From IMG/VR virus record IMGVR_UViG_3300018080_000105, positions 32,001-96,000 of that record: DNA of 64,000 nucleotides. The stretch is one strand, 5' to 3'. Both the position numbers and the translations under genes were made by a program. The stretch's first letter is position 1, and each line of letters starts with the position of its first letter. This stretch comes from a virus. Shown here piece after piece: positions 500 through 28,121 of this stretch. Under the pieces are notes generated by a model. The model did not search any database. It was not told the DNA's origin and worked only from the letters and a program-made list of their open reading frames with translations.

Positions 500-2008
500 T
501 TAGGCTGCGTAATTCTGCAGCAAGACCAGATCGGCTGTCAACGCTAAATCGGGTTTATGGGTAGGTTGTGCCCCGAGAAAACTCAGTTGGTACAGGGCAT
601 ATTCTTCGGCCAGCTTACTCACATCACTGTTATCGGAAGCAACCTTCTCGTTCCCACTACGAAGAACAGGAGCTTCTTCCAGGTACAGTGCTGCTCGCGT
701 CACTCGATCCTGCACGTGTGCCGGATGTAGTGAGAAGTGGCTGGCCAGCTTGGCTGCCCACGTCTCGAACCGGGGCGGTGCGACGGCAACTGACGGTGCG
801 TAGTGACTTTTCTTCACTCGCGCCGGCAGATCTCCCTTCTCCAACATCCGTGTAAAGATCCCCGGGAGTTCCCGGGAAACCAACGCTGACACGGTCGCCG
901 CTTTCTCGTGAGAGATATCGGTCGTGGCAGCGAGGAACGCGGACACTGGAAGGCAGATCTGCTGATCTGCCATTGCGCGCAGAGCGTACGCAAACTTATA
1001 GCGGAACTGTGGAGGCAGTTCCAAGTCAGCGTCCTGCACAGAGTCCCGAAACGCTAAGGCAGAAGTCGCCGACAGCGTATTCGGATCCTCGTGTATCTGG
1101 CTTTCTCGGGCGGCCAACAGGTAGGCCGTTTTGATCAGATGCTCGACTTCTTTGGGATAATCACCCTGCAGCATCATTTCGATTGGTTCCACAATGCCCA
1201 TCTGATGGGCCAGCTCGGCGCTCTTAATCACACGCCCATGAACGGCGGCGGATTTCTCCAGAGCGCCCATCACATAAGCGATGCGGTCAGCCGGCCGGTA
1301 GACGTTGCTGATATCGAAGAAGCTGGGTTGTGGGTTGTCAGCGTGCAGATGGTGGATACCGCCATCAATCTCGATCAGCGACCCAATGTTGTCGCGAAGC
1401 CCACCAGCTTTGCACATACCACCCTGGTAGGTCCCGGAACAATAATCAGCAGTAGTAGGAGCCACGTTCGCACAATACGAACAAACGTCGTGCGGAACGG
1501 AGCAGGCCATTGAGACAGCGATCTCTTTGTTCGCTGCCAGCTTTTCCATCTCACGATCAGCAATCAGCCCGCCGTTACGCCGGGCCGCGGCCTCGTTAGC
1601 GTTGAGAGCGACCAGCAGTTCGATCCGCTTCATGGGATCATGCCATGCAGATTTAACCACACGGCCGTAGCTCTTCTTGGGATCTTTGTTCTGATGGTTG
1701 CGATAGAAGCGAGCGAACTTCTCAAAGGTCGGGTGGTACTCGCGACAAACAGAAGCACGGAACCCATCACCGTTACGGTTCGGCCCGTAGAACTCCGTGG
1801 CGCCCATTGCCAACATGTGGACGAGCACCTCGTCGGACGCCACCTTCTCGCGGATACGATCAATGTCCCGGAGCAGGTCGTCAGAAGCGCGCTTCACGAA
1901 CGCATCACGGTCGCTGCCCGTTAGGCCGCGACCTGTGAGTTTGACTTCGCTTACCACGGGCTCGTCGTAATTGAGCGAGTCCGGAGTGACAACTTTGACG
2001 ATGCTCAT
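500..2008 (-). CDS. Prohead/maturation protease (assemblin/HK97-like serine protease) with Cys-rich insert and long helical C-terminal region
   Basis: NHQNKDP..GRVVKS (His), VSMACSV (Ser) and FFDISNVYRPAD match the caudoviral prohead protease pattern H...S...(E/D)xSxVxxPA. CSYC..C..C cluster follows the Ser. Confidence 0.7.
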   Translation of the reverse strand: MSIVKVVTPDSLNYDEPVVSEVKLTGRGLTGSDRDAFVKRASDDLLRDIDRIREKVASDEVLVHMLAMGATEFYGPNRNGDGFRASVCREYHPTFEKFARFYRNHQNKDPKKSYGRVVKSAWHDPMKRIELLVALNANEAAARRNGGLIADREMEKLAANKEIAVSMACSVPHDVCSYCANVAPTTADYCSGTYQGGMCKAGGLRDNIGSLIEIDGGIHHLHADNPQPSFFDISNVYRPADRIAYVMGALEKSAAVHGRVIKSAELAHQMGIVEPIEMMLQGDYPKEVEHLIKTAYLLAARESQIHEDPNTLSATSALAFRDSVQDADLELPPQFRYKFAYALRAMADQQICLPVSAFLAATTDISHEKAATVSALVSRELPGIFTRMLEKGDLPARVKKSHYAPSVAVAPPRFETWAAKLASHFSLHPAHVQDRVTRAALYLEEAPVLRSGNEKVASDNSDVSKLAEEYALYQLSFLGAQPTHKPDLALTADLVLLQNYAA

Positions 2009-5371: not shown

Positions 5372-5794
5372 TTATCCGTTCAATGCCGACGGTTCAATCA
5401 ACAGGCTGAGGCCGTAGGTTTCCGTCCCAGAACCTCCACTGTTGATACGCATCCACAGCCGCCGTACAGGGTTTGTCGGCGTGCCGTCTCTATTGATGTA
5501 AGGGTAGTCTACCGCCGCCCGGTACGCCCCGCTCGTAATGGACACTTGTCCATTCGTAATCGAGTGCGCTTCCGGGTCACCGCCTTCCGTGGCAGAATCG
5601 GCAGACGAGCCAGCTGTCGCCATCGCCGCTACTTCGGAATCATAGATCTCGAAGTTGCCGGCGTCGGTGCCAGAGAGCTGTTTCAAATTGATCTGTTTGA
5701 TCGTCCCACGATGCGGCACATCAAGTCGCACGATCTCTTCCTGTCCAGCCTCGACAGAAAACTGAACAGGGCCATAACCCCATTGGTTACTCAT
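5372..5794 (-). CDS. Hypothetical beta-rich protein (possible virion decoration)
   Basis: Start reassigned to ATG 5794 (MSNQWGY), overlapping the HNH stop; alternating hydrophobic strands. Confidence 0.6.
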   Translation of the reverse strand: MSNQWGYGPVQFSVEAGQEEIVRLDVPHRGTIKQINLKQLSGTDAGNFEIYDSEVAAMATAGSSADSATEGGDPEAHSITNGQVSITSGAYRAAVDYPYINRDGTPTNPVRRLWMRINSGGSGTETYGLSLLIEPSALNG

Positions 5795-6518
5795 GGTCGG
5801 TTCCCCAAAAGATGTTGAATTCGTCAGCGGCCTGCGCGATCTTGATAGCCATCTCAGGCGGGAGTTCAGAAAGGTCTTTGGCGCCCTTCTGCGAGTTGCA
5901 GACACGGCACAATGTAACAGCGTTGCCTGGTCGAAGGCCGTGCCCCTTGGACAACGGCTTTACGTGGTCAGTACACAGACTACGCTGACTGTTACAGTTC
6001 ACGCAGGCCGGCTGCGACTCCCGGAGAGCCTGCTCCATTTCAAGAGTCCACGCGGCATCCAACTGCTGTTTCCTTTCCATCCTCTCGCGGACTTTCATAC
6101 GAGCATACGCAGGCGTCCTTGACTGTCCGTGCGTGCTATTAACCGCACTAGCCCGGCTCCGCTGATAGCACCCGCAGGACTGTGTGTGCCCGTTGCGGAG
6201 CTTGGCAGCCATCACGGCAATCTCACGACCACAGTCACAAAGACATGGCCAGAAATTATTTCCAGGAGCAGGCCGGCGAAGAATCATCAGCCGACCGTAA
6301 CGAGCACCTACTACGAGACGCGATGGCAAGTTGTCCAAGTGCTCTCTCAGAACACAACCACAAGACGTGATCTTGCCCTGCTGGAGGTCCCCAGACCTGA
6401 TCGACTTCTCATTACCGCAGGTACAAACGCATAACCAATACACGCCCTTCCGCGAGGTGTCTCGCTGAAGGACGGTCAGCCGTCCATATCTTCGTCCTGT
6501 GCGGTCAATGAGTTTCAT
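5787..6518 (-). CDS. Free-standing HNH homing endonuclease with two N-terminal CxCG...SCGC repeats
   Basis: GRRYGRLTV..WLCVCTCG..SCGC twice; C-terminal CVNC..TDHVKPLSKG..NAVTLCRVCNSQKG HNH motif. Confidence 0.85.
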   Translation of the reverse strand: MKLIDRTGRRYGRLTVLQRDTSRKGVYWLCVCTCGNEKSIRSGDLQQGKITSCGCVLREHLDNLPSRLVVGARYGRLMILRRPAPGNNFWPCLCDCGREIAVMAAKLRNGHTQSCGCYQRSRASAVNSTHGQSRTPAYARMKVRERMERKQQLDAAWTLEMEQALRESQPACVNCNSQRSLCTDHVKPLSKGHGLRPGNAVTLCRVCNSQKGAKDLSELPPEMAIKIAQAADEFNIFWGTDHE

Positions 6519-8974
6519 CAGTTTGCAACATCCCGAAGACTAAGGTCAGAACTGTCTTCTTCTGGGTACGGTTCAATTGTCTTTTGCTTTAAGAAGAGCA
6601 CGATATCGCCAGTCGACTCGAACGCGTTCCGCAATGAGTCTTCCAGTTCGGGCATATCCTGCTTGCCGTACCTATCGGCAAACTGCTCCTGGTGCCAGTA
6701 GAACTGGAACAGGATACGCCCTAATCGATCAACCGACCGGATGATATCAGGAATGTACCGATCAATCATCGTATCGTCTCGCACAGCTTTCAGCATGGAG
6801 CCGATCATCGCTGTGTCGAAGACTTCCTTCTGACCGGAAGCAGCTGCGTCTGCTACAGCTGCGTGATCCATCGGTCCCGGTGTGGCGCCAGGGCGTACAT
6901 CATAAACCGAAGGATCGGTGTTAGCTGCTGACAACGCCTCGACAGGAACCTCTTCTTCCTGCATGGCGATCGTGTTGCCCTGGAAGCCCATCGGGTTGTA
7001 GCCGCCCTGCATCGCTTCCGGGAATGATGGAGCCATCGGGGCTCCCTCGGTCAGGAAGGGATTAGCGTACTTCACGCGACAAACCATGCCGTTACCAGCA
7101 TGGCTTTTGTGCTTCGCAGTCTTCAGCAGTTCCTGAGAGGCCGGCACAGAAAGCCCGTGGTCATAAACCAGGTGGACCTGTGCATCCCGCGGAGTTAGCC
7201 GGTGACCATTGACGATGTAGCGGGTGCCCTCGTCTACGATTCGCAGCTTTGCGGTTTTCTTCATGATGTTCGCAGTGGCGTCGAACAGGTTGCCAGGCTG
7301 GATCGGCGGATCCTTGCTCGTGGTGTCGTCAGCACAGCAAGGCTCGATATGAGCCTTGTTCTTCCGACGCTCATCCCAGTTCGTCATCTGGACTTTGACA
7401 ACCTTGCAACCCTTCGGCACAAACAAGTCGCCTCGACTGGACCGCATATCGGTTCCGTCTTTGGCATCCAGATGAATCCGTTGCCCGTCAGACCATTTGC
7501 TATACCGATCATAGTTGGATGACGTATCGTAGTCTGTCCAACGACGCATACCCACTTCACGACTACGCGGGTGGTCAGTCTCGAAGTCGACTTTGTAAGA
7601 GTCATCGCCGATCGAATCTTCCACGCGGAACGTACAGGTCGCGTTGCGTCGCGGTCCAACAAGCATGTAGCGATCACCAACAGTCAGAGAGCTGGCGTCA
7701 GACTGACTATCGAGCCAGTCTTGCCAATTCTCTTCGCCGCCCATTTCTTCTTCCTGGCCGGCGGTCCAGATGTCGTGGCGGTCGAAGTTGCCCCAGCTCT
7801 TGTCCCCTTCAAGCCGCACAACCAGGCAGGTGCTTTCACGCCCATCTGGGCCGACTGGGTTGATGACTACCAGACACTTATCGAACTCGCCCGGCTTCGT
7901 CAGCACCTGATAGATGCCAGTTTCACCAGGATTGACGAGCTTTTGTTCGACCTGCAGGTTTACCGCCACAGAGATCTCATCGCCGGAGCGGTGATCTTTG
8001 ATCAGCATGCCGTCTCGCAGCAGCTTTTCCTGGTCCTCTTCGGCGAGGTCCTCGGGCGGCCCGTCCACCATACTCTGTTCGCTGGTGATGATACGGATCT
8101 TCTGACGTGCGTCCGGGCCGTCGTCATCGTCGGCCGCAGTCTTCTCGCCCAGGATGGAACCGGTGATGATTTGGTTCTTATTTACCGAAGCGTACGGGTC
8201 ATCCATCACGGAGCTGATGTTGCTCCGGTTGCGTGCCTCTGACACGGCATCGGTCAGCACATCCATCCCGTGCCAGTTAGCGAAGGCAGCTGCGATCTTG
8301 GGCTTCCGCTGCATCATTTCCACAACCGCCTGCAACGCTGGCAGGCTGGCTTGCTTCATGAAGTCACTCAGATCGAGCTTCGTTTGACAATGATCCGCAA
8401 ATTCGGAGATGCTGTCTTGCAGAGGCCGTGTCGCTAAGTGCCCAAACACTGGCATGAACGCAGCGACAGCAGACGCGTACTTGTGCGGCGACTCGCGGAG
8501 CTTCGAGAGTTCTGGCTGGCTCACGCCGATAGCCGACAGGTTACGGTCAATACCTGCGCCAATGATGTTCGGCTTACGATTGATGACGTAGTTGAGCCAG
8601 TTCTCTTTGAGCGGGACAAACATGTCCTGATTCTTCAGGTACAACAGTTCGTGGCCCTTCAGCTCACCTTGAAGAAAGAACACTGGAGCAAACAGCTGAG
8701 AGCTGCCTACCTTAAAGGCCATCACACCGACAGCCTGGGTGTTCTCTTCGTTGCGGTCGAGCAGCTGGAAGCCCAGCTCGTGATCGAGCAGGGTCGGAGC
8801 TTTATCCCGCATGTAAGCGTGAGCCAAATTGGAGAAGGCCTGCTCAAAGGGAGCGTCGGCACCATCTCCTCCCAATTCGGCTACTTTGATCGTCTGTTCC
8901 GGCGCGTGTGCGTAGTCACGGACACGGTTCATCCAGTAGTCGATTTCATGAGTCTGAGGCATGGGGCGCTCCAT
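6518..8974 (-). CDS. Large K-x-A-containing virion-module protein, function unknown
   Basis: 818 aa ORF with KVA, KYA, KQA, KIA, KTA (x3) and KYA motifs; coupled to the HNH by a TGATG overlap. Confidence 0.7.
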   Translation of the reverse strand: MERPMPQTHEIDYWMNRVRDYAHAPEQTIKVAELGGDGADAPFEQAFSNLAHAYMRDKAPTLLDHELGFQLLDRNEENTQAVGVMAFKVGSSQLFAPVFFLQGELKGHELLYLKNQDMFVPLKENWLNYVINRKPNIIGAGIDRNLSAIGVSQPELSKLRESPHKYASAVAAFMPVFGHLATRPLQDSISEFADHCQTKLDLSDFMKQASLPALQAVVEMMQRKPKIAAAFANWHGMDVLTDAVSEARNRSNISSVMDDPYASVNKNQIITGSILGEKTAADDDDGPDARQKIRIITSEQSMVDGPPEDLAEEDQEKLLRDGMLIKDHRSGDEISVAVNLQVEQKLVNPGETGIYQVLTKPGEFDKCLVVINPVGPDGRESTCLVVRLEGDKSWGNFDRHDIWTAGQEEEMGGEENWQDWLDSQSDASSLTVGDRYMLVGPRRNATCTFRVEDSIGDDSYKVDFETDHPRSREVGMRRWTDYDTSSNYDRYSKWSDGQRIHLDAKDGTDMRSSRGDLFVPKGCKVVKVQMTNWDERRKNKAHIEPCCADDTTSKDPPIQPGNLFDATANIMKKTAKLRIVDEGTRYIVNGHRLTPRDAQVHLVYDHGLSVPASQELLKTAKHKSHAGNGMVCRVKYANPFLTEGAPMAPSFPEAMQGGYNPMGFQGNTIAMQEEEVPVEALSAANTDPSVYDVRPGATPGPMDHAAVADAAASGQKEVFDTAMIGSMLKAVRDDTMIDRYIPDIIRSVDRLGRILFQFYWHQEQFADRYGKQDMPELEDSLRNAFESTGDIVLFLKQKTIEPYPEEDSSDLSLRDVAN
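8173..8186. promoter_or_regulatory. Repeated 14-mer GGTTCTTATTTACC, copy 1 (intragenic)
   Basis: Identical to 50430-50443 and to the reverse complement of 33389-33402. Confidence 0.45.
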
Positions 8975-9043: not shown

Positions 9044-10939
9044 CTACGGGGTCGTTTTGTTAGTGTCAAGATCCTTCCAGCCCTGGGTTGCTCCATGCTC
9101 CCCAAAGCCAGCTCCGTGGGCCAGGGCCGGCACATAGCTGGTCCCGCCCTCGTCCGATACAGCACCTCGTCGGGCGCCTTCCAAAAGACTGTTTTTCTGG
9201 TAACTACCCAACATCCTGGTCATCCAGTCCGGGTCATGTGCCGCATTCGACATTCCCCGAATCATTTCCGGCTGAAACGGAGGAGGCTCGGTATGTGCGT
9301 AAATCGACCGAACTCCGTGTTTCTGCAGATGTTTTACCATCGAAGGCTGGATCTTGGTACCCACGGAATAATGTAGGACGGGTCGTTCGAGATATTTTCC
9401 TGCTGCCTGGTTCGGTGTAATGACCGCGTGGCCCTCACGCGGTTTCCACTGTCGCTCCAGTAATTGGTAAGGAACCACATCATCCTGGACCCAGTCACCC
9501 ATCTCTTCGGTGAGCCTGACATGGTTGATCAGGCCCCGAGAAAGCAGCTCGATATTACGTCGGTGACCACGTGTTCCCATACCGTCAAGCGTGTCGCGGA
9601 ATGCCTTCACAAAGTACCGTCGACCTTCTCCGACGCCTTTATGCTTTACGACTTCGGCCGGGTTGGGGATTCCTTCGGAGATAACATCTCCGGCTTCGAC
9701 CGTGTCACCCTTTTTGACTTTGAGCTCGTAGCCGTGACCAACATAGTGGTCTTCGTTCCCAATGTGGACGTAGTGTCCGCCCTGCGGAGCTTCTCGCACA
9801 GAGTGCACAGTCCCGTCCAACTGAGCATGTGCCGCACCCGCGGCGAATTTCTTAGGGACTTGCACCAGCTGGTTGATGAACTGGAAACCTGAGATGGCAC
9901 CCGCCCCTGCTCCCGCCACGCCCCCAGAATGCTTTGAGGAAATTTGGGCCTGCGTGATCGGTTCCGCGAGTGCCTGGGCCGCGGCAATACCAACATAGTC
10001 ACCGATTGGCGACAATCCTCCACGTTCGCGATATCCCAAATCACGGGCATAAACTCCGCCGTCCTGCGGCCCGCCCACGGTCGGACTGCGAACAAGTATT
10101 TCATCAATGCCATCAGCTTCCAGCTCTTTCAAAATCTTCGGTGTCAGGACCGTATTGCGTTTGTACCCGCCGATCGGGTGCGCCAGCAGTGAACCAGCTG
10201 TATCTGAGTCGTTCGTATTTACCGGCAAACCGCGTGGCGTAGATTCGTCGTAGGGATCGTCATCATCGTCTGACGTAACCAGCAGGCGATGAGTTGCCTG
10301 CACGAGCTGCTTTGCCAGGAATCCGGCATCCTGTGTCGCACTCTTCAAGTCCTGAATCCCTTTCCTCGCACCGAACGCCCCGGCGAAATACTCATAGGGC
10401 TTCAGTCCCATGGAATAACTGCGAAGCACAGGAATCGGCAATGCGTTGCCGCGGTGGTCGGTGTACAGGAGGTCAGCTCCGCGAAGAGAATTCAGATTTA
10501 CGCTGTTACCCCGCGAACCAGACTGTACCTGCATTGCAAGCGGGTTGCCTTCGTCCTTGGATTCCTGCAGGACATCTTTGTGCAGCTGTCCCTGATATTT
10601 CTGCACAGCGAGCAAGACTGCGGTGTCCTTTTGTTCGTCAGACATGTTGGACGAATAGATCTTGTCCAGTTCCTTCTGCATCTTCATCCGCATCTGCCGC
10701 CCAGCCAGTGACTGTCGCAGAGATTTCAATCCAAATGAATAGCCACCCTCGGAGAACGAAGCATCCCGCCCAATGTCAGACAGGCGTTTGGCGACTTCGC
10801 GATATTTATCCGGGTGTTTATCGGCTACTTCCTGGAGCAAAGCACGGATGCCTTTCTTGTCCAGTACCCGGTCGTGGTCGACCAAGTCTTCTGGCAAGAC
10901 ACTGTTGATCCAGAGTTGTCCAAGAGTCGTTTCCAGCAT
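9044..10939 (-). CDS. rpoC: Phage RNA polymerase beta' subunit, C-terminal half (bridge helix, trigger loop, jaw)
   Basis: TTLGQLWIN (TTxGR), SGSRG (SGARG), GARKGIQDLKSATQDAGFLAKQLV (bridge helix), VGIAAAQALAEPITQAQISSKHSGG (trigger loop with His). No Cys. Confidence 0.93.
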   Translation of the reverse strand: MLETTLGQLWINSVLPEDLVDHDRVLDKKGIRALLQEVADKHPDKYREVAKRLSDIGRDASFSEGGYSFGLKSLRQSLAGRQMRMKMQKELDKIYSSNMSDEQKDTAVLLAVQKYQGQLHKDVLQESKDEGNPLAMQVQSGSRGNSVNLNSLRGADLLYTDHRGNALPIPVLRSYSMGLKPYEYFAGAFGARKGIQDLKSATQDAGFLAKQLVQATHRLLVTSDDDDDPYDESTPRGLPVNTNDSDTAGSLLAHPIGGYKRNTVLTPKILKELEADGIDEILVRSPTVGGPQDGGVYARDLGYRERGGLSPIGDYVGIAAAQALAEPITQAQISSKHSGGVAGAGAGAISGFQFINQLVQVPKKFAAGAAHAQLDGTVHSVREAPQGGHYVHIGNEDHYVGHGYELKVKKGDTVEAGDVISEGIPNPAEVVKHKGVGEGRRYFVKAFRDTLDGMGTRGHRRNIELLSRGLINHVRLTEEMGDWVQDDVVPYQLLERQWKPREGHAVITPNQAAGKYLERPVLHYSVGTKIQPSMVKHLQKHGVRSIYAHTEPPPFQPEMIRGMSNAAHDPDWMTRMLGSYQKNSLLEGARRGAVSDEGGTSYVPALAHGAGFGEHGATQGWKDLDTNKTTP

Positions 10940-10944
10940 TCGTA

Positions 10945-11196
10945 TCAGCCAGATTTGATCTGAGGTTGCCCCGGGGCATTAACGTCGATGACTGCGACCG
11001 TCTTATCGATACCAAGGTTACGCAGTACCTCGTTGAACTGTCGCTGCGTAGATTCCTGTGCAGTCTCTGCGATGATCAACTCATCTCCAAGTTCTGCGGC
11101 GACGGCGATCGGATTGTCGAACTTATCAAGAACAACGACCCGAGTGACTTCTTTGGTTGTGAAGTCGCCCAGGCCATTGTGAAACATGATCTTCAT
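10945..11196 (-). CDS. Hypothetical 83 aa protein between the RNAP genes
   Basis: Coupled ORF (TGATG overlap with the upstream gene at 11196). Confidence 0.65.
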   Translation of the reverse strand: MKIMFHNGLGDFTTKEVTRVVVLDKFDNPIAVAAELGDELIIAETAQESTQRQFNEVLRNLGIDKTVAVIDVNAPGQPQIKSG

Positions 11197-11879
11197 CAGA
11201 CCTGCGTCCTCTGCCGCATAATTGCCGCCACAGCCGCAGCCCCGGTCTCGGGGTCGTAGTTGTTGAGAACATCACGCACAGTCAACTGTGCTGCCTTCTC
11301 GCCTCCGCCCCCGGCCAAGCCGGCCTGCATCGGGTTAATATCTGGAATCGGTCCACCGCCGTCATCCGCTGGAGCCATTGCAGCTCCCGGATCCTGCGGC
11401 CCGCCAGGCACTGCCGCTTCCGCGACAGGTGTCGGCGAGCCTGGAGGTGTGATCAGGGCACCCGGATCGAGCTGAATGCCCTGTGCGTTCATAATAGCCG
11501 TCAATTGTTGCTGCAGATTGTACAACCTGAAGTCCAACATCTGCATCATTTGCTCGGGCTTCATTTTTGGCGGGGCTGCTCCAGCACCGCCGGCGGCAGC
11601 TGCCGCCGGGTCGGCTGGAGGAGCGGCACCAGCTGCCATCGCTGGGTCCATCGCACCACCGACCATAGCTGGATCAACAGGAGGCGCCGCTCCGGGCATT
11701 GCTCCAGCCATTGCCGGGTCCATCGGGGGCATGCCGCCTGCAGCCGCCATAGCCGGGTCCATCGGGGCGCCGGCGGGCGCTGCAGGAACGACTGCAATCT
11801 TTTCCATTGAAGGACCGCCTTGATCCTTCCACACACGATGCTGCGCGAGTTCAAGAAGAGCAGGGTTGTAACCGGTCAT
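11196..11879 (-). CDS. Low-complexity P/A/G/M-rich protein with DPAM repeats and K-x-A motifs
   Basis: Five (M/V/A)DPA(M/A) units, EKIA and EKAA motifs, coupled overlaps at both ends. Confidence 0.7.
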   Translation of the reverse strand: MTGYNPALLELAQHRVWKDQGGPSMEKIAVVPAAPAGAPMDPAMAAAGGMPPMDPAMAGAMPGAAPPVDPAMVGGAMDPAMAAGAAPPADPAAAAAGGAGAAPPKMKPEQMMQMLDFRLYNLQQQLTAIMNAQGIQLDPGALITPPGSPTPVAEAAVPGGPQDPGAAMAPADDGGGPIPDINPMQAGLAGGGGEKAAQLTVRDVLNNYDPETGAAAVAAIMRQRTQV

Positions 11880-12487
11880 CAGTTGATCTCCGAATCAGAT
11901 TGGCACGGGCATACGCCGTCATTCATCTTCTTGCCGAAATTGCAATTTGCGCACAACGTCTGCAGAGTATCTGGGAAACCATTCTGAATAGCCCAACGAT
12001 ACAAGTTCGTGGGACCGATTTCCTTCCGGTGAAGATACCCGTCATCGTTCACATGGTCAATTTGTAAGAAATACTCGCGAGTTTCGCCACAGCAGACGCA
12101 TTTCCGTCCGTAGTGATCAAAGACTTGTGACTTCTGCCGCTGATACCGCTCAACCTTCTTGGCCTTGCAGCCCAAGCAGTAAACTCCCGTCTCTACCGGA
12201 GTAGTACAGGTCGGACACAGGCCGGCTTCTCTCCAGGCTGCTCTCCGTTCGTTACTGTTCCGCTGCTGGCTCTTGGCACAGACGGCGCATCTTACACGCC
12301 CAGCTCGGGGTGAGCGAACCCCGCAGTTGACACATTTCCCCGAATTCTTCCGCCGTTCTCGCCGGTCCCTGGATTTCGCCTTGGCGATCTCCGCACAGGC
12401 AGGGCACAGAGCCTTGTCGGTCGGAGTCTCGCACTCAGTGCACTGACCCGCAGCACGACGCCGCCTGTATTGCATGAGGGAAGCCAT
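11879..12487 (-). CDS. HNH-type endonuclease with three N-terminal CxxC..CxxC zinc-finger repeats
   Basis: YGRKCVCCGE..FLQIDHVNDDG..LQTLCANCNFGK His-Me finger; three GxCxxC..CxxC repeats. Confidence 0.8.
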   Translation of the reverse strand: MASLMQYRRRRAAGQCTECETPTDKALCPACAEIAKAKSRDRRERRKNSGKCVNCGVRSPRAGRVRCAVCAKSQQRNSNERRAAWREAGLCPTCTTPVETGVYCLGCKAKKVERYQRQKSQVFDHYGRKCVCCGETREYFLQIDHVNDDGYLHRKEIGPTNLYRWAIQNGFPDTLQTLCANCNFGKKMNDGVCPCQSDSEIN

Positions 12488-15400
12488 TATTTCTCCATGA
12501 TCTTGACCCGCCGACCGACGCCGATCTTGCCCTGTTTGTAGGCTTTGACCGCATCCTGGACAGTGGCGAAAGTGGCGGGGGCGTTCTTCTTGTCCTGCTG
12601 GGCCGAGGCTTCGTAGAGGCCTCCGATATATTCTTGGGAAGGTAAAAAATGTACGCCAAAAGAAGCTGCGCTAAACAAATTCCTGGATGGCAACATTTTC
12701 TGCAGCGCCTCTTCCTTCGCGTCGTCGTCCAGCGGGACGTGATACTGCATGGCGTCCCCGTCGAAATCTGCACCAAATCCGCCCACCACGAGAGGACTAA
12801 TCTTCAAAACGGTGCCTTTCACCAGCCGTGGACGGGCTGCCATGACACCATACCGGTGCAACGTGGGAGCCCGGTTGATCACCACCACGCCACTTTCCAT
12901 CTCGTCCATCATGGCTTTTCGAGCTGTCGGGGTCTTATCTTCAACAGCCCGAGCAGCATCCACACGACTCATACCGCGTCGCACCATCCGGCGAATCATC
13001 GTCGGGCGATAGATCTCCCAGGCTGTCTCTTCCGGAATACCCACTTGATCCATATCGAGGTCAGGGTCCGGGGCAATCACTGAACGACCAACCATGTCTG
13101 TAGAGGAACCCAGCAAACGACGCTGAACCGTCCCGGTCTTTGGGGACGATCCAAAGATGTGTTTCAGAATTCCTTTGACCTTCCGCTCCTGATTCTTTGG
13201 GTGCGTCGGATCACCGAGACCTGTCACGGCTTTGAACGCCTCGTATGTTGCGAGACGTTCATCACCAATATCCTCTTCGTCAAGCTGTTCAGACAACTGC
13301 TTCAGATTGTTGTTTGCATCCCACAGCTCTTTGTAGAGATAGTTCGGGTCCGCAACGAGTGGTAACTTCTTCGCACCCATCGTCGACACCGGACGAAACG
13401 CCGGAGGCAAAACAGGGGCGCGCTTCAGCACCCAGTCTCGCGGATGGATGTTGAGACGCTTTGCACTCTTCAGATATCCGAGCCGGCGGACCGCTTTGTC
13501 TCGGTGAGTCTTCTTCCCGCTGGCGATCTCAGCTCGTGCCCTCGCAATCTCCTTGTCGAGTTCGAGCCCGTTGAGTGCGGCGGCAACAGCGCCCGGACCG
13601 ACACGTCCGTTGAGCTTCTCGCGGCCCGCCAGAATGTCGTTGAACTTGTTCTTTGTCAGCCCCAGCAGCCGCCTGATCGGTTCCTCCATCACAGGGTTCG
13701 GCATGGGTTCCGCAAGTTTGATCGCTGCCCATCGGTTTCCTCCTCCATCGGCGGTTTGGTGCCCGCCAGTCAGCGACTGGTCAAAGAGTCCGCCTTTTGA
13801 CGGCTCCATCGTCTTCCAGTCTACGGTTTCAACATTCTTCAATTCGCGTTCGCCAGCCAGTTCATCAACGTCCTTGTCGGTGAGTGCCATGATATGCACT
13901 TTGTCACCGTTGCGGACCACGTTGATCCCTGACGCTTTCAGACTGTTCACGAACTTACGGTACACATGCGGCACCTCCGGAGTCGGAGGTTTGAACCCGC
14001 TCATATACTGTGCCCAGTAATCCGGATTGGCCTGGCCCCGGATGATGCTGCCGTCTCGAACCACCGATGTAGCTCCGTGTGACAGCAGTGCGTTTGTTTC
14101 CAACATCCCGACACGTTTAGCGCCAGTCTTCCCGCCCTTCGCCGGCGTACGCTCGGCGGTGTATGAGCCAATGCCGCGACCCTGCGCTTTGGAATCAGCT
14201 GTGTGGTGCAGCTTCATCACCCAACGATTACCGGTGAAGATGTCATTCACCTTCCGGTCGTTGGTTGGGTCGATGATTGTCTCCGTGTCTTCCAACCCGG
14301 CTTTCTGAAGTTCGCGTAACGCGAACTCGATCATGTCTTCCTCGTCCTGGAAGTCTGGAACCTTGAATGGCTCACCACGTTTGGCCGCGATCTTTCCAAG
14401 AGCAGCTTCCACAATCTGAGCAGGATTGGTACGGCTGATGACACCCAACGGGTTAAGCAACAGATCGTAGGCTTTGCCATCCTGGTCGGTCGGCATTTGA
14501 TCGTCGGGAATGACGTGGCTGATGATCCCTTTGTCGCCATACCGTCCGCTCAGCTTGTCGCCGACCTTCATTGGGATAGATGCCTTCACAACCACCGACG
14601 CACCCTTCGGCGTCTGGACTACATCAATCACTTCGCCATCGTAGTCGTGGTCCCACTTTAGACTGACGTCCTGAAAGCTGGGCTTCCCACCTTTCAGCAG
14701 ACTCTTCTTGTTTCGTTCCTTTTCACGCGCCACCAGGATCAGTGGGTCGCCTTCTGAGACTTTAGTACCGGGCTTTACCACACCTTCATCGTCGAATCGC
14801 TCCAGAATGTCGCGCCCGTACTTCGACGGAAAGATCGACTGGAACGATTTACGTCCGCGGTGGTCACTCTTCTCCCAGTCATGCGAGTTCTGGTAAGTGT
14901 GCTGCGACGACATTCGCTTCGCGAACGATGCACTGATGACATTGGCATCTTCAAAGTTAAGGCCACCCCATGGAACGTACGCCACACGGGCATTCATTCC
15001 GAGAGCAGTAGTACCCTGTTCGTCTGTGAAGTTAGAGCGCGCCAGCAACTGTCCAGCCTCAAACTGATCACCAGGTTGGACAGTGGCTGTCTGATGCAAG
15101 CTGGTCTTCCGATTGAACGGGAAGTTGTTGTACAGAGGTAGCTCTGCCTTTTTCCCGTCGGCGTAGCGAACCTTGATCCCGTCCGGCGACACCGCTTCAA
15201 CCACCCCTGGCTGGTCAGCGTGAAGGGCGCCCATCTTGTCGGCATACTCTTGCTCGAAGCTGCGACCCTCAACGCCGGGCATCCCTGATTGCACGAGAGG
15301 AGCCTCGGCACCATCCAACGGCATAGCCTGCGTAAGCATTCGTGCGGCCATCACCGCTCGCTGCCCCTTCACCATGGATTTCATGGGGATCATGTTGCCG

Positions 15401-16914
15401 AGAGGACTGAACGTGTCCTCCATATCGGGCACCTCGAAGTCAACCTGTGACTTGTTGACGGTGCGGACCTTGCCGCGAACCAGCGCTCGCACAAAGTCCT
15501 GATCCTTATTCATCTCATTCGGGAACGCTACCACAGAGTCCGCAAAGTCTCGCGGCGATTTGTACACGGTCTGACCGTCCAGTGTCTTCACTGGCGTGTA
15601 CAGTTGTCCGTCTTCCCCTTTGACCGCTCCACGGGCTAATCGCACATCCACGCCAACCTTGCCGCTCTCCGGGGTCCGGAGGAAGTCGATGAAGCCGAAC
15701 TGAGATGGCTGAACCGCGCGGCTCTCGTCCGGGATAGCGTCCAGCGACGTGATACCGCCCTCGCCCATCCGCGTTACACGAGACTGCTGGTCGTACACCT
15801 CGGCCGGGTTGATCTCTTCCAGCGGAGATGCCAGCCCGGAACTCATGAGCGTCGACATCACCGTGTCCTGGTAGGGACTGGTCGCCAAGTTGTCGAGATT
15901 CTTCCGCGGCGTTGCCTTCCACAGCATCTGCCGGGCCACGTTCTTAGCTCGCGACAACCGATCAGCAAACAGGTCTTCGGGACCGTACAGCTTCTGATAA
16001 GCCAACGCGTCACGGTCATCCTCTTCGTCTTCGTCTTTCGCCACACGGATCAGTTTACGGGTGACTTCCAACAGCGTGTCCGCATTGACGTTCTTTACCC
16101 CACGGCCCAGTGTTCGCTGCGTCACCTCCGGATCCAGTTCCATCTCTTCAAACGACTTCACAACAGCAGCCACCTGCCCGAGATCGTCGGCAGTGCCGTT
16201 GCGGTGCAACTTTTTGTACAGCTTACCGATCGCACCTTTGTCGAGCTTCTTCATATTCTCGGCGGTCAGCTCGTTACCCCAGGCCTCTCGCAGCTGCCGG
16301 TCTTCGACACCCATAGCCTTCAATAACGGCATCAGCGGAATACGAGCCTGTCCCATCTGAATGCGGAACACACCGGTCGCGGGGTCGAGGTACAGACGAT
16401 GGCCGTACCCTTTGGAGACATTGACGTGGCTCTCGATCTCGCCGTTGCTCTTCCGGCGAGTGAAGATGCCAGGCCGCAGCCGGGCCTGGTGAGCCATTGT
16501 GTACTCGTTACCGTTCAAAATGAACGTGCCGCGCTGGGTCATGTACGGGACCTTCGCCAGCTGCATGCTACGGCGGGAGACCTCGTTGCCTTCCAGATCT
16601 CGCAGCACGGCATCACCAGTCAGCTTCCTCGCGAGAGTCCCGCGGGCCAGCAAGGCCTTCTTCTGCGCAGCAATGTCGTAGCTGTCCGGCCCGGCCCATC
16701 GCGGGTTTTCGATCGCCAACTGATACTGAGAGTTGCTGACTGGCTCAAACGACTTCGCTGCGGCCAACACGTTGTCAAAAATCATTTGACGCGTACGGGC
16801 GGCGTCTCCGAACCGCCGAAAGTTCCCCGGCCCAACCGCCGGAGCGGGAGCCACTGGAGTTGTCGGCGTCGGTGCGGGTTCTTGATCGTCCAGAATACTG
16901 GGATCAGGCCGCAT
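12487..16914 (-). CDS. rpoB: Phage RNA polymerase beta subunit fused to the N-terminal half of beta' (contains the catalytic DFDGD)
   Basis: Beta motifs PYMTQRGTFILNG, NFEDA, GDKLSGRYGDKG, KLHH, SLKASGINV (about aa 1000). Beta' motifs PVLPPAFRP, LLGSSTDMVGRSVI, NRAPTLHR, GADFDGDAM (12754-12774). No Cys. Confidence 0.95.
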   Translation of the reverse strand: MRPDPSILDDQEPAPTPTTPVAPAPAVGPGNFRRFGDAARTRQMIFDNVLAAAKSFEPVSNSQYQLAIENPRWAGPDSYDIAAQKKALLARGTLARKLTGDAVLRDLEGNEVSRRSMQLAKVPYMTQRGTFILNGNEYTMAHQARLRPGIFTRRKSNGEIESHVNVSKGYGHRLYLDPATGVFRIQMGQARIPLMPLLKAMGVEDRQLREAWGNELTAENMKKLDKGAIGKLYKKLHRNGTADDLGQVAAVVKSFEEMELDPEVTQRTLGRGVKNVNADTLLEVTRKLIRVAKDEDEEDDRDALAYQKLYGPEDLFADRLSRAKNVARQMLWKATPRKNLDNLATSPYQDTVMSTLMSSGLASPLEEINPAEVYDQQSRVTRMGEGGITSLDAIPDESRAVQPSQFGFIDFLRTPESGKVGVDVRLARGAVKGEDGQLYTPVKTLDGQTVYKSPRDFADSVVAFPNEMNKDQDFVRALVRGKVRTVNKSQVDFEVPDMEDTFSPLGNMIPMKSMVKGQRAVMAARMLTQAMPLDGAEAPLVQSGMPGVEGRSFEQEYADKMGALHADQPGVVEAVSPDGIKVRYADGKKAELPLYNNFPFNRKTSLHQTATVQPGDQFEAGQLLARSNFTDEQGTTALGMNARVAYVPWGGLNFEDANVISASFAKRMSSQHTYQNSHDWEKSDHRGRKSFQSIFPSKYGRDILERFDDEGVVKPGTKVSEGDPLILVAREKERNKKSLLKGGKPSFQDVSLKWDHDYDGEVIDVVQTPKGASVVVKASIPMKVGDKLSGRYGDKGIISHVIPDDQMPTDQDGKAYDLLLNPLGVISRTNPAQIVEAALGKIAAKRGEPFKVPDFQDEEDMIEFALRELQKAGLEDTETIIDPTNDRKVNDIFTGNRWVMKLHHTADSKAQGRGIGSYTAERTPAKGGKTGAKRVGMLETNALLSHGATSVVRDGSIIRGQANPDYWAQYMSGFKPPTPEVPHVYRKFVNSLKASGINVVRNGDKVHIMALTDKDVDELAGERELKNVETVDWKTMEPSKGGLFDQSLTGGHQTADGGGNRWAAIKLAEPMPNPVMEEPIRRLLGLTKNKFNDILAGREKLNGRVGPGAVAAALNGLELDKEIARARAEIASGKKTHRDKAVRRLGYLKSAKRLNIHPRDWVLKRAPVLPPAFRPVSTMGAKKLPLVADPNYLYKELWDANNNLKQLSEQLDEEDIGDERLATYEAFKAVTGLGDPTHPKNQERKVKGILKHIFGSSPKTGTVQRRLLGSSTDMVGRSVIAPDPDLDMDQVGIPEETAWEIYRPTMIRRMVRRGMSRVDAARAVEDKTPTARKAMMDEMESGVVVINRAPTLHRYGVMAARPRLVKGTVLKISPLVVGGFGADFDGDAMQYHVPLDDDAKEEALQKMLPSRNLFSAASFGVHFLPSQEYIGGLYEASAQQDKKNAPATFATVQDAVKAYKQGKIGVGRRVKIMEK

Positions 16915-26456: not shown

Positions 26457-28121
26457 TCACCTTAGTCCAAGAACAGAGCCAGTTACACCGCGAATCATAC
26501 CGCCCCACAATCCCATGTTCTGCAACTTCTTCTGGGCTTGTGGTTTGAGACCGCCAAGAACTCCAAGAACGCCACCCGCGATATGTGCCGTCGCCAAATC
26601 CACGCCGGCTGTCGCCAACCCGCGAATGAAATGCCGCGGCGACAACATCGACGGATTACCATGTAGTTGCTGCACGCCGGTAACCAGTCCGGAAGCAGCC
26701 GCTGCGTGCATCGGTGGAGTGTGGCGACCAGCATCACCCCAAATTGCACGATTAAACGCGTCAACCGGGACAGACTGTAACGCTACCCCGCGACTGCCCG
26801 TGTACCCACTGGAGTTCACTGCGCGTTTAATTCGGTTGACACTTTTCTCAAACTGATCGGACGCTGTGAGTCCCAACGTGTCGAGGTAATCCAAAGCCTG
26901 CTGCTGCGCGCTGGCCTTGTAGTGATTCATATAATCAATTTCGCTCGGAGCGATGTTCTGCTGCGTGACCGGCTGCAGGAATGACTTCCGCCACTGCGGC
27001 TTCCCGGTCGCGTTCTGGTTCATCTGTGCATTAGCCAAGCCTTGTGGGACATGTAAAGCCGCGCCGCCAAGCCCGCCGAGTATCGCCAGGTTCCGTCGCA
27101 GTTTACCGCGTTCCAGGTACTCTTCTGGCAGCAACTGCTCAGCAAGCCAGCCACCGCCGTAACCCAGCCCGGCGCCCAGCAACCCAGACACGATGGAGTT
27201 GGACATTGCCGAAGGCCCACCGGTCAGCTTACCCGCCGCACGGTATGGCAACCCCAGGTACTCCAGCGCAGAGGCTTTCTTGACCATGATCCAATTATCA
27301 GAGTCAGACGGGCCAACCTCAGATTCGGCGATGACTTTGTCGACCCCGTCGATCGAGTTGACGGCTTTCTCCCACTGCTCATAAACCTCTCGGCCGTCAG
27401 AGTCACCAAGCACGATCCACGCCGTCTTGTTTTCCGGATGCCAGTAAACGTAACCGTAACCAGGCATAGCCGGCAGATCTTTAATCGCCGTCTTTAGGGC
27501 GTCCCGGATGGCAGCCGCGAGCTTTAAGCGTTGGGTGACAAGTGCCGGGACCTGTCGCCACAGCGACAGTTCGCCCTTTTTTTCGATGCGTTTGATAGTT
27601 TCATCAGCCACGGTTTTCCATGCCCTCCTGGCGTCTACTGCGCGGTCGTCGAGATAGAGGTCCGCTACAACTTTGTCTGAGGCATCTTCCGGCTGGTCTG
27701 GGTTCTCGTTGATATGGTCGAACGGAATATCGTGTTCTTCCAACCAGCTGCGAACCAGTTTTTTGTCACCACGCACCGTGTTAATGATGATCTGATAACC
27801 CTCGTCCCGAAACCGCTGCATACTCTTCTTGGCGCCCGGCCTCGGCTTCTCGATCTTCTTCGGATCGAACTTGTCGTACATCGAAGCTAGCGTGCCGTCG
27901 AGATCTACAGCCACTGTGGGGAGTCGGTCCGCACGCGACTTCCCCGCAGCGGACTTTCGTCGCCCATCCAACACAGCACTGAGGCCGTCCAGCGGCAGAG
28001 AGGCTTCGGGGGTTTGTATGATCGTGGATAGTCGCGACATTGCGTTTCCCATGACTCCATGGCCTCTTTGAACCACTTCCAGAAAGCCGCGATCGCTCGC
28101 CGCCTTTGTTTGCTTCTCCAC
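26457..28121 (-). CDS. K-x-A polyprotein: HAD-family phosphatase domain + unknown domain + Gly-zipper membrane-like region
   Basis: VAVDLDGTL (DxDxT) and DLYLDDRA (motif IV); K-x-A at domain boundaries; SIVSGLLGAGLGYGGG and LAILGGLGGAAL. Confidence 0.75.
   Translation of the reverse strand: MEKQTKAASDRGFLEVVQRGHGVMGNAMSRLSTIIQTPEASLPLDGLSAVLDGRRKSAAGKSRADRLPTVAVDLDGTLASMYDKFDPKKIEKPRPGAKKSMQRFRDEGYQIIINTVRGDKKLVRSWLEEHDIPFDHINENPDQPEDASDKVVADLYLDDRAVDARRAWKTVADETIKRIEKKGELSLWRQVPALVTQRLKLAAAIRDALKTAIKDLPAMPGYGYVYWHPENKTAWIVLGDSDGREVYEQWEKAVNSIDGVDKVIAESEVGPSDSDNWIMVKKASALEYLGLPYRAAGKLTGGPSAMSNSIVSGLLGAGLGYGGGWLAEQLLPEEYLERGKLRRNLAILGGLGGAALHVPQGLANAQMNQNATGKPQWRKSFLQPVTQQNIAPSEIDYMNHYKASAQQQALDYLDTLGLTASDQFEKSVNRIKRAVNSSGYTGSRGVALQSVPVDAFNRAIWGDAGRHTPPMHAAAASGLVTGVQQLHGNPSMLSPRHFIRGLATAGVDLATAHIAGGVLGVLGGLKPQAQKKLQNMGLWGGMIRGVTGSVLGLR

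Follow-up and report, generated by a model that had tools for sequence, protein, structure and literature searches.

The DNA analysed here, which we call the window, is a stretch of 64,000 nucleotides (nt) corresponding to bases 32001-96000 of the 184,021-bp IMG/VR virus record IMGVR_UViG_3300018080_000105 (estimated completeness, 89%). Positions 9044-16914 of the window contain two genes that, judged by their profile and alignment matches, encode the core of a bacterial-type multisubunit RNA polymerase (RNAP) with the double-psi β-barrels of β and β′. Three further open reading frames (ORFs) lie between them.

12487-16914, minus strand: gene for a β-β′N fusion, 1475 amino acids (ORF, Pfam and alignment)
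11879-12487, minus strand: cysteine-rich HNH-like ORF between the RNAP genes, 202 amino acids (motif read from the sequence)
11196-11879, minus strand: P0004, an Ala/Pro/Met-rich protein between the RNAP genes, 227 amino acids
10945-11196, minus strand: P0003, a small conserved protein preceding β′C, 83 amino acids
9044-10939, minus strand: gene for β′C, 631 amino acids (ORF, Pfam and alignment)

The 1475-residue chain matches the Pfam families RNA_pol_Rpb2_6 (179 bits) and Rpb1_2 (90 bits), the 631-residue chain matches Rpb1_5 (66 bits), and sequence searches of the PDB align the two chains to bacterial β′ with E-values of 1e-55 and 1e-34. When the longer chain is aligned with RpoB and RpoC of E. 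coli, its residues ~1-1000 correspond to β and its residues ~1001-1475 to the N-terminal half of β′. The joint is almost linker-free, with SGINVV-RNGDKVHIMALTDKDV running on into the N-terminal block of β′. The fusion chain ends near E. coli β′ residue 551; the β′C chain starts near residue 575 and extends to the end of β′, including the bridge helix and the trigger loop. An earlier reading of this DNA, made without database searches (the sequence-only reading), had described the catalytic DFDGD, FED and KLHH motifs and the trigger-loop His as intact, and the alignments agree: the β′ catalytic loop GADFDGD is aligned to E. coli residues 458-464, the β active site features NFED (E813/D814), GDK..GDKG (GDKLSGRYGDKG; K1065/K1073) and KLHH (the equivalent of H1237), and the trigger-loop His is located in SSKHSGG of β′C. 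The clamp helices that dock σ region 2 are present in the fusion chain. No second RNAP was found in a genome-wide search with Pfam models, leaving a single encoded enzyme.

Both unusual aspects of the gene layout have bacterial counterparts in active enzymes, namely the fused rpoBC genes of Helicobacter and Wolbachia and the split β′ of cyanobacteria (γ subunit), but those enzymes retain both zinc sites, α and ω. The cyanobacterial γ chain (624 residues) aligns to the β′N part of the phage fusion, the alignment ending at residue ~551-556, and the phage split is located ~60-70 residues ahead of the cyanobacterial γ/β′ split.

Neither RNAP chain contains a cysteine (0 of 1475 and 0 of 631 residues, or 0 of 2106 in total). 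The sequence-only reading had placed a two-chain, cysteine-free RNAP at these positions, and both this claim and the strings quoted in its support, GLFDQSLTGGHQTADGGGNRWAAIKL in the 1475-residue chain and VRSPTVGGPQDGGVYARDLG in the 631-residue chain, proved correct. Given a genome-wide cysteine content of 1.44% (206 crude gene calls), the probability of finding no cysteine in 2106 residues is ~6e-14. Both zinc sites of β′ are affected, again as previously claimed. Alignment to E. coli β′ shows that the first zinc ribbon (C70/C72/C85/C88) is deleted whole, as it is in the clade of homologues described below and in the more distant phages Arash and D69. The second site (C814/C888/C895/C898) is replaced by D/G/Y/D, and these replacement residues are conserved across the clade. 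From the missing cysteine ligands we infer that the enzyme is zinc-free. To our knowledge, the cellular RNAPs studied so far all keep zinc-binding modules in their largest subunit, where their presumed role is to help the enzyme assemble and the clamp work.

Large protein databases contain hundreds of homologues with 54-74% sequence identity, on contigs of up to ~230 kb. Among intein-free homologues, β′C lacks cysteine in 94 of 95 and the fusion chain in 87 of 98; the other 11 fusion chains have one cysteine each, giving 11 in 144,255 residues overall. The RNAP genes of 68 related loci in IMG/VR have cysteine contents of 0.012% and 0.027%, and conserved flanking genes have 0.95% (an 818-residue protein; 65 homologues), 1.69% and 2.17% (a homologue of Arash gp222). 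In the present genome the terminase contains 1.2% cysteine, the portal protein 1.0%, the 818-residue protein likewise 1.0% (8 cysteines), and baseplate-region proteins 0.4-2.6%. Because flanking, portal and baseplate genes keep a normal cysteine content, the purge is neither a phage-wide compositional quirk nor a general trait of virion proteins; the same three values (portal, 818-residue protein and the 2.6% baseplate-region protein) led us to reject the notion that the virion proteins of this phage are simply cysteine-poor.

Inteins are frequent in both RNAP genes of the relatives (homologues P0037-P0124, P0130-P0228 and P0244-P0393), and in β′C they have four or more different insertion points, located at the bridge helix and the trigger loop. 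Most of the 14 inteins that we checked start with a cysteine. The first extein residue past the C-terminal junction is a serine wherever it could be resolved, and therefore the spliced polymerase remains cysteine-free. One sub-group of β′C proteins (P0246-P0393) carries C-terminal extensions of 400-1000 residues, composed of Pro/Ala-rich linkers and globular parts and also cysteine-free. We considered whether the long β′C representatives (1000-1700 residues) are fusions to the 818-residue protein, and rejected this because the extensions are unrelated to it and free of cysteine.

The phage also encodes a putative σ factor, at some distance from the RNAP genes:

genome 7148-7954, outside the window: σ70-type factor, 268 amino acids, adjoining a Baseplate_J gene

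The protein matches Pfam Sigma70_r3 above the cut-off and region 4 weakly; region 2 had no Pfam match anywhere in the genome. It is homologous to Arash gp10. An AlphaFold2 model built from a 31-sequence alignment (predicted local distance difference test score, pLDDT, 82) is helical and consists of three domains. The best PDB matches of this model in Foldseek are SigA, SigB, σS and WhiG, with a probability of 1.00 over ~250 columns; template modelling (TM) scores are low because the domains are oriented differently relative to one another. The predicted architecture is σ2-σ3-σ4. The σ factor is cysteine-free in the present phage, and its 67 homologues contain 3 cysteines in 17,459 residues. 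That σ is under the same unusual constraint as the polymerase argues that the two travel together. The cysteine loss is thus a stronger observation than could be seen from the window, being clade-wide, gene-specific and shared with the cognate σ factor. For α and ω, no match to PF01193 or PF01192 was found in the 184-kb record (two Pfam models only, in a record that is 89% complete). The earlier statement that the window holds no gene for α, ω or σ is therefore true of the window and, as far as these two models go, of the genome for α and ω, but it does not extend to σ.

When the locus was compared by megablast with 50,697 phage records, no match was returned, and by this measure the phage has no close cultured relative. 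The closest cultured relatives are the Vibrio phages D69, D148 and D181 and the Salmonella phage Arash, whose proteins are ~30% identical to the fusion chain across 96-97% of its length. Arash and D69 share with the present phage the β-β′N fusion, the split near β′ residue 551 and the deleted first zinc ribbon; genomes of this group are ~180-187 kb long. The group further resembles the present phage in having a homologous cysteine-free σ factor (gp10 in Arash) and in the location of the RNAP among genes for virion proteins. Arash and D69 differ in that the portal gene is directly upstream of the RNAP and in the genes between the two chains, among which no P0003 homologue was detected. In D148 and D181 the fusion match comes in two pieces, and a homing-endonuclease gene is annotated in that stretch. 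Since Arash and D69 lack the first zinc site and retain the second, loss of the first must be older than the whole Arash/D69/clade group and loss of the second specific to the clade.

Liquid chromatography with mass spectrometry (LC-MS) of purified Arash particles detected the fusion chain, β′C and σ (PMC10585845). The published values for these and selected other Arash proteins are as follows (all from PMC10585845).

gp206 (fusion), the most-detected protein: 128 unique peptides, 3516 spectra
gp216 (β′C): 40 unique peptides, 1210 spectra
gp10 (σ): 24 unique peptides, 467 spectra
portal protein: 32 unique peptides, 877 spectra
major capsid protein: 30 unique peptides, 1333 spectra
ribonucleotide reductase (RNR) α subunit: 11 unique peptides, 663 spectra
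primase: 2 unique peptides, 932 spectra

When unique peptides are related to protein length, the RNAP chains and σ are like the portal and capsid proteins and unlike the metabolic enzymes, with values 4-6 times that of RNR. As a separate observation, several heavily detected Arash virion proteins contain few cysteines, namely gp4 (1097 residues, none), gp217, named as a 'helicase' (472 residues, none), gp229 (2548 residues, two) and gp10 (none); the background cysteine content of Arash is 0.76%.

Homologues of Arash virion proteins are also found near the RNAP genes in the window:

6518-8974, minus strand: gp218-like gene directly downstream of the RNAP block, 818 amino acids (Arash homology)
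500-2008, minus strand: gp222-like gene, homologue of an Arash virion protein (Arash homology)

It is the C-terminus of the 818-residue protein that matches Arash gp218. A homologue of the major capsid protein is encoded ~12 kb further downstream, just beyond the window (genome 28795-29724), and this gene and the gp218- and gp222-like genes are on the same strand as the RNAP genes. The sequence-only reading had placed the RNAP inside the head module. Synteny with gp218, gp222 and the major capsid protein supports this placement, but the portal homologue is located ~76 kb from the RNAP genes, in contrast to the arrangement in Arash and D69.

We favour the interpretation that the RNAP is a virion-carried, ejected, σ-dependent holoenzyme, to which we assign a probability of roughly 0.68. 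Packaging had already been proposed by the sequence-only reading. It remains the best explanation, given that gp206, gp216 and gp10 rank with the most abundantly detected proteins of Arash virions and that only the RNAP, σ and a small number of further proteins show the purge. The polymerase core, consisting of β fused to β′ ~1-551 and of the C-terminal half of β′, would work with the phage's own three-domain σ70-family factor and without α or ω, the covalent β-β′ joint taking over some of the role of the assembly platform. Produced alongside the head genes, the polymerase would be loaded into the capsid and, on ejection, would accompany the DNA, so that early genes could be transcribed independently of the host polymerase. 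Selection would have stripped all cysteines, and with them the two Cys4 zinc sites, from an enzyme that may spend part of its life outside the reducing cytoplasm (in the capsid, the tail channel and the cell envelope), and whose refolding after ejection would need to avoid disulphide trapping and the reloading of metal.

Several points weigh against this interpretation. The virion detection comes from Arash homologues that are only ~30% identical and belong outside the present clade, and the Arash authors leave open whether the RNAP is packaged or whether abundant enzymes are carried over (PMC10585845). Arash and D69 keep all four cysteines of the second zinc site, as well as one or two others, showing that loss of zinc is unnecessary for packaging. 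The sequence-only reading had named the retention of cysteines or zinc sites by homologues as evidence against its proposal; the clade homologues are nearly all cysteine-free, and the distant Arash and D69 enzymes are the ones that retain a site. A metal site not based on cysteine, for instance one made of Asp or His residues, may exist in the clade enzymes, and divergent analogues of α and ω or the host's own subunits may take part in assembly. Finally, the presence of a periplasm in the host is itself an assumption.

Cysteine suppression in ejected proteins has a published precedent in N4-like phages (Schitoviridae), to whose virion RNAP (vRNAP) the sequence-only reading had rightly pointed. 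The vRNAP family contains 0.00075% cysteine compared with 0.865% in the proteome (PMC11445570), which is explained there by the route of these proteins across the periplasm, the site of catalysed disulphide formation (PMC11445570, PMC3715699). The present clade shows a similar family-wide, near-total suppression, with 0.01-0.03% cysteine versus 1.44%. However, the N4 vRNAP is a σ-free, single-subunit T7-like enzyme of ~3500 residues that uses hairpin promoters and has an unrelated fold, whereas the present chains match β/β′ only, and no T7-like fold, in Pfam and the PDB. The likeness is best regarded as analogy, not homology.

The vRNAPs of jumbo phages of the phiKZ/AR9 type resemble the present enzyme in being multisubunit, β/β′-derived and composed of split subunits; they have no α or ω and are packaged and ejected (PMC7598289). 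They differ from the present enzyme in being far more divergent, in consisting of four or five chains, in having no σ70-type factor and in being paired with a second, non-virion RNAP (nvRNAP). Iyer et al. ascribe a β′ zinc ribbon to nvRNAPs and mention none for vRNAPs (PMC7824862). The phiKZ enzymes allow the rule 'cysteine-free means ejected' to be calibrated. The phiKZ vRNAP (gp80, gp149, gp178 and gp180) contains 16 cysteines in 2614 residues, or 0.61%; the nvRNAP has about twice this density (1.16%), and the background of the phage is 0.77%. We therefore reject the idea that ejected multisubunit RNAPs can in general be recognised by a lack of cysteine: such a lack is neither required for ejection nor a general marker of it, and this too counts against our preferred interpretation.

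The same comparison undermines the cause proposed by the sequence-only reading, an oxidising periplasm, since a proven ejected RNAP has a cysteine content near the background of its phage. The periplasmic rationale is correlative. The purge may be accounted for equally well by oxidation within the capsid, or by a need to refold without metal once the protein has been threaded through. An alternative built on this point accepts that the enzyme is carried in the virion, but ascribes the purge to prolonged oxygen exposure in the extracellular capsid, to an unfold-thread-refold cycle without metal, or to both, instead of to disulphide catalysis in the periplasm. It accommodates the cysteines that the phiKZ enzyme retains despite the periplasm of its host, as well as the Cys4 zinc site of Arash, which appears to package its RNAP nonetheless, and the loss of whole zinc modules rather than of free thiols only would fit a refolding problem. 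Residence in the virion cannot be sufficient, however, given that the portal, baseplate and 818-residue proteins keep their cysteines, and the published interpretation of the N4 family favours periplasmic passage. On balance, we consider this alternative somewhat unlikely.

We regard it as more unlikely still that the enzyme is a non-virion RNAP, made after infection for middle or late transcription in the manner of the mReC phages (see below) or of the phiKZ nvRNAP. The loss of cysteine and zinc would then require other causes; for example, the phage may economise on zinc in oligotrophic waters, resist host defences of an oxidative or thiol-reactive kind, or tolerate an infected cell that is oxidising. 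A σ70-type factor would suit a cytoplasmic enzyme equally well, the phiKZ values show that the signature is not diagnostic of ejection, and the Arash LC-MS data include cytoplasmic enzymes (RNR, ligases and primase), which points to carry-over. Zinc economy, however, leaves unexplained why cysteines that are not zinc ligands were removed and why a σ factor that has no zinc site was purged, and the purge extends to further large proteins encoded in the structural and baseplate regions. Carry-over does not sit easily with unique-peptide densities of the Arash RNAP and σ that resemble those of the portal and capsid proteins rather than RNR, nor does cytoplasmic use with an RNAP gene located within the head-gene block. 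Moreover, the phage encodes a single RNAP, and without packaging its early genes would need the host RNAP. That the polymerase is a decaying, non-functional remnant whose two normally invariant zinc sites have drifted away is effectively refuted by conservation: the catalytic motifs are all intact, hundreds of contigs carry the ORFs at full length with 54-74% identity, inteins occupy the bridge helix and trigger loop as is typical of essential active genes, and the D/G/Y/D replacements are themselves conserved.

The mReC phages mentioned above are uncultured tailed phages from IMG/VR with cellular-type β and β′ (Weinheimer & Aylward 2020; PMC7481178). They resemble the present clade in this origin and in having β and β′ sequences recognisable by standard hidden Markov models, but their β (~1150 residues) and β′ (~1400 residues) are encoded by separate genes tens of kb apart (PMC7481178, table). 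The paper does not mention cysteine, zinc, virions or σ (PMC7481178). Neither the long clade contigs from five metagenomes nor the low-numbered contigs from a sixth, which is covered by the table, occur in the part of the mReC supplement text that was searched. These comparisons did not establish membership of the clade in mReC, and the Arash-type architecture looks like a separate lineage or sublineage.

Phage multisubunit RNAPs and cysteine-suppressed ejected proteins are both known already; the present case adds the N4-like cysteine signature in an unrelated, multisubunit and probably σ-dependent polymerase. If our interpretation is correct, a large and widespread phage clade provides a natural experiment on the purpose of the zinc sites in RNAP. 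It would also inform on the minimal requirements for assembly, with a covalent β-β′ joint replacing α and ω, and on how a polymerase of >230 kDa is unfolded, ejected and refolded. The principle that cysteine suppression marks ejected proteins would be extended from the single-subunit enzymes of N4-like phages to a σ-dependent multisubunit holoenzyme, yielding an inexpensive sequence-based criterion with which the ejected cargo of uncultured phages could be predicted. Much of this is directly testable in the cultured relative Arash, a Salmonella phage.

The criterion can be applied to the present genome, in which 10 of 113 ORFs of at least 200 residues, and several smaller ones, lack cysteine. 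The cysteine-free set includes both RNAP chains, P0003, P0004, the σ factor and the following:

26457-28121 of the window, minus strand: HAD/PNKP-like protein, 554 amino acids, no cysteine
genome 10837-14478: protein of 1213 amino acids, no cysteine and no family match, at the position of the Arash virion cell-wall hydrolase
25889-26452 and 20899-21579 of the window, both minus strand: further sizeable cysteine-free ORFs
genome 9585-10364 and 31016-32455: further sizeable cysteine-free ORFs

Together with the RNAP and σ, these ORFs may define the ejected cargo. In its most far-reaching form, the proposal is that β-β′N, β′C and σ, possibly joined by P0003 and P0004, make up an ejectable machine free of metal, thiols, α and ω, and that 'zero cysteine' labels the ejected cargo, including the 1213- and 554-residue proteins and a few others. 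We put this forward tentatively, as something short of an even bet.

The two small genes between the RNAP chains are typical of the clade, where an inter-chain gap of ~975 nt usually encodes a P0004-like protein of ~240 residues and a P0003-like protein of 70-84 residues. Proteins of both types almost always lack cysteine, as both do in the present phage. P0004, found between the RNAP genes at most clade loci, has a highly conserved central helix (KPEQMMQMLDFRLYN..) with PMDP(A/S)M repeats on either side; Pfam and further family searches gave no match, and we regard P0004 as a candidate accessory or packaging factor. In clade loci, P0003 invariably adjoins the β′C start or overlaps with it. 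Its model is confident (pLDDT 89) and contains five strands and one helix, a secondary structure on which we rejected a relationship to the all-helical ω subunit. P0003 had no match in Pfam, PHROG or Atlas, its model had no Foldseek match at E<=0.001 (best VIA Z, 2.8), and its profile did not detect the small ORFs beside the Arash and D69 RNAP genes. Both proteins are candidate accessory subunits or packaging adaptors.

The third ORF between the chains (11879-12487) is of a different nature. It encodes 19 cysteines in 202 residues and a DH..N..N/CxxC motif, with no match in Pfam or PHROG, and because a homologue is present at only 1 of the 68 related loci we take it to be a mobile insertion specific to this lineage rather than a component of the enzyme. 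A second HNH endonuclease (window 5787-6518, minus strand; Pfam HNH, PHROG 374, 15 cysteines) is encoded just downstream of the 818-residue protein; no homologue was found at the 68 related loci, which makes it a further mobile element inserted into the head block.

We also noted a 14-nt motif, GGTTCYTATTTACC, which occurs at 18 sites in the genome when up to two mismatches are allowed (8 exact), compared with 0-1 in shuffled sequences. Sites in the window are at 8173 (plus strand), 10210 (plus), 33389 (minus) and 50430 (plus). About half of the sites are intergenic by crude gene calls, several are 17-24 nt upstream of a ribosome-binding site and start codon, and some directly follow a GC hairpin; their orientation to genes is mixed. 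Relatives do not conserve the motif in their structural-module loci, except for one syntenic site in the closest relative (L052). We considered it as the promoter recognised by the phage RNAP; it is a candidate phage-specific promoter, which we leave as a lead owing to the mixed orientation and the lack of conservation.

Upstream of the RNAP block, a 590-residue protein (window 22619-24391, minus strand) contains a trypsin-like peptidase domain (Trypsin_2, 48 bits), and this protein is a possible protease for head maturation or cargo processing.

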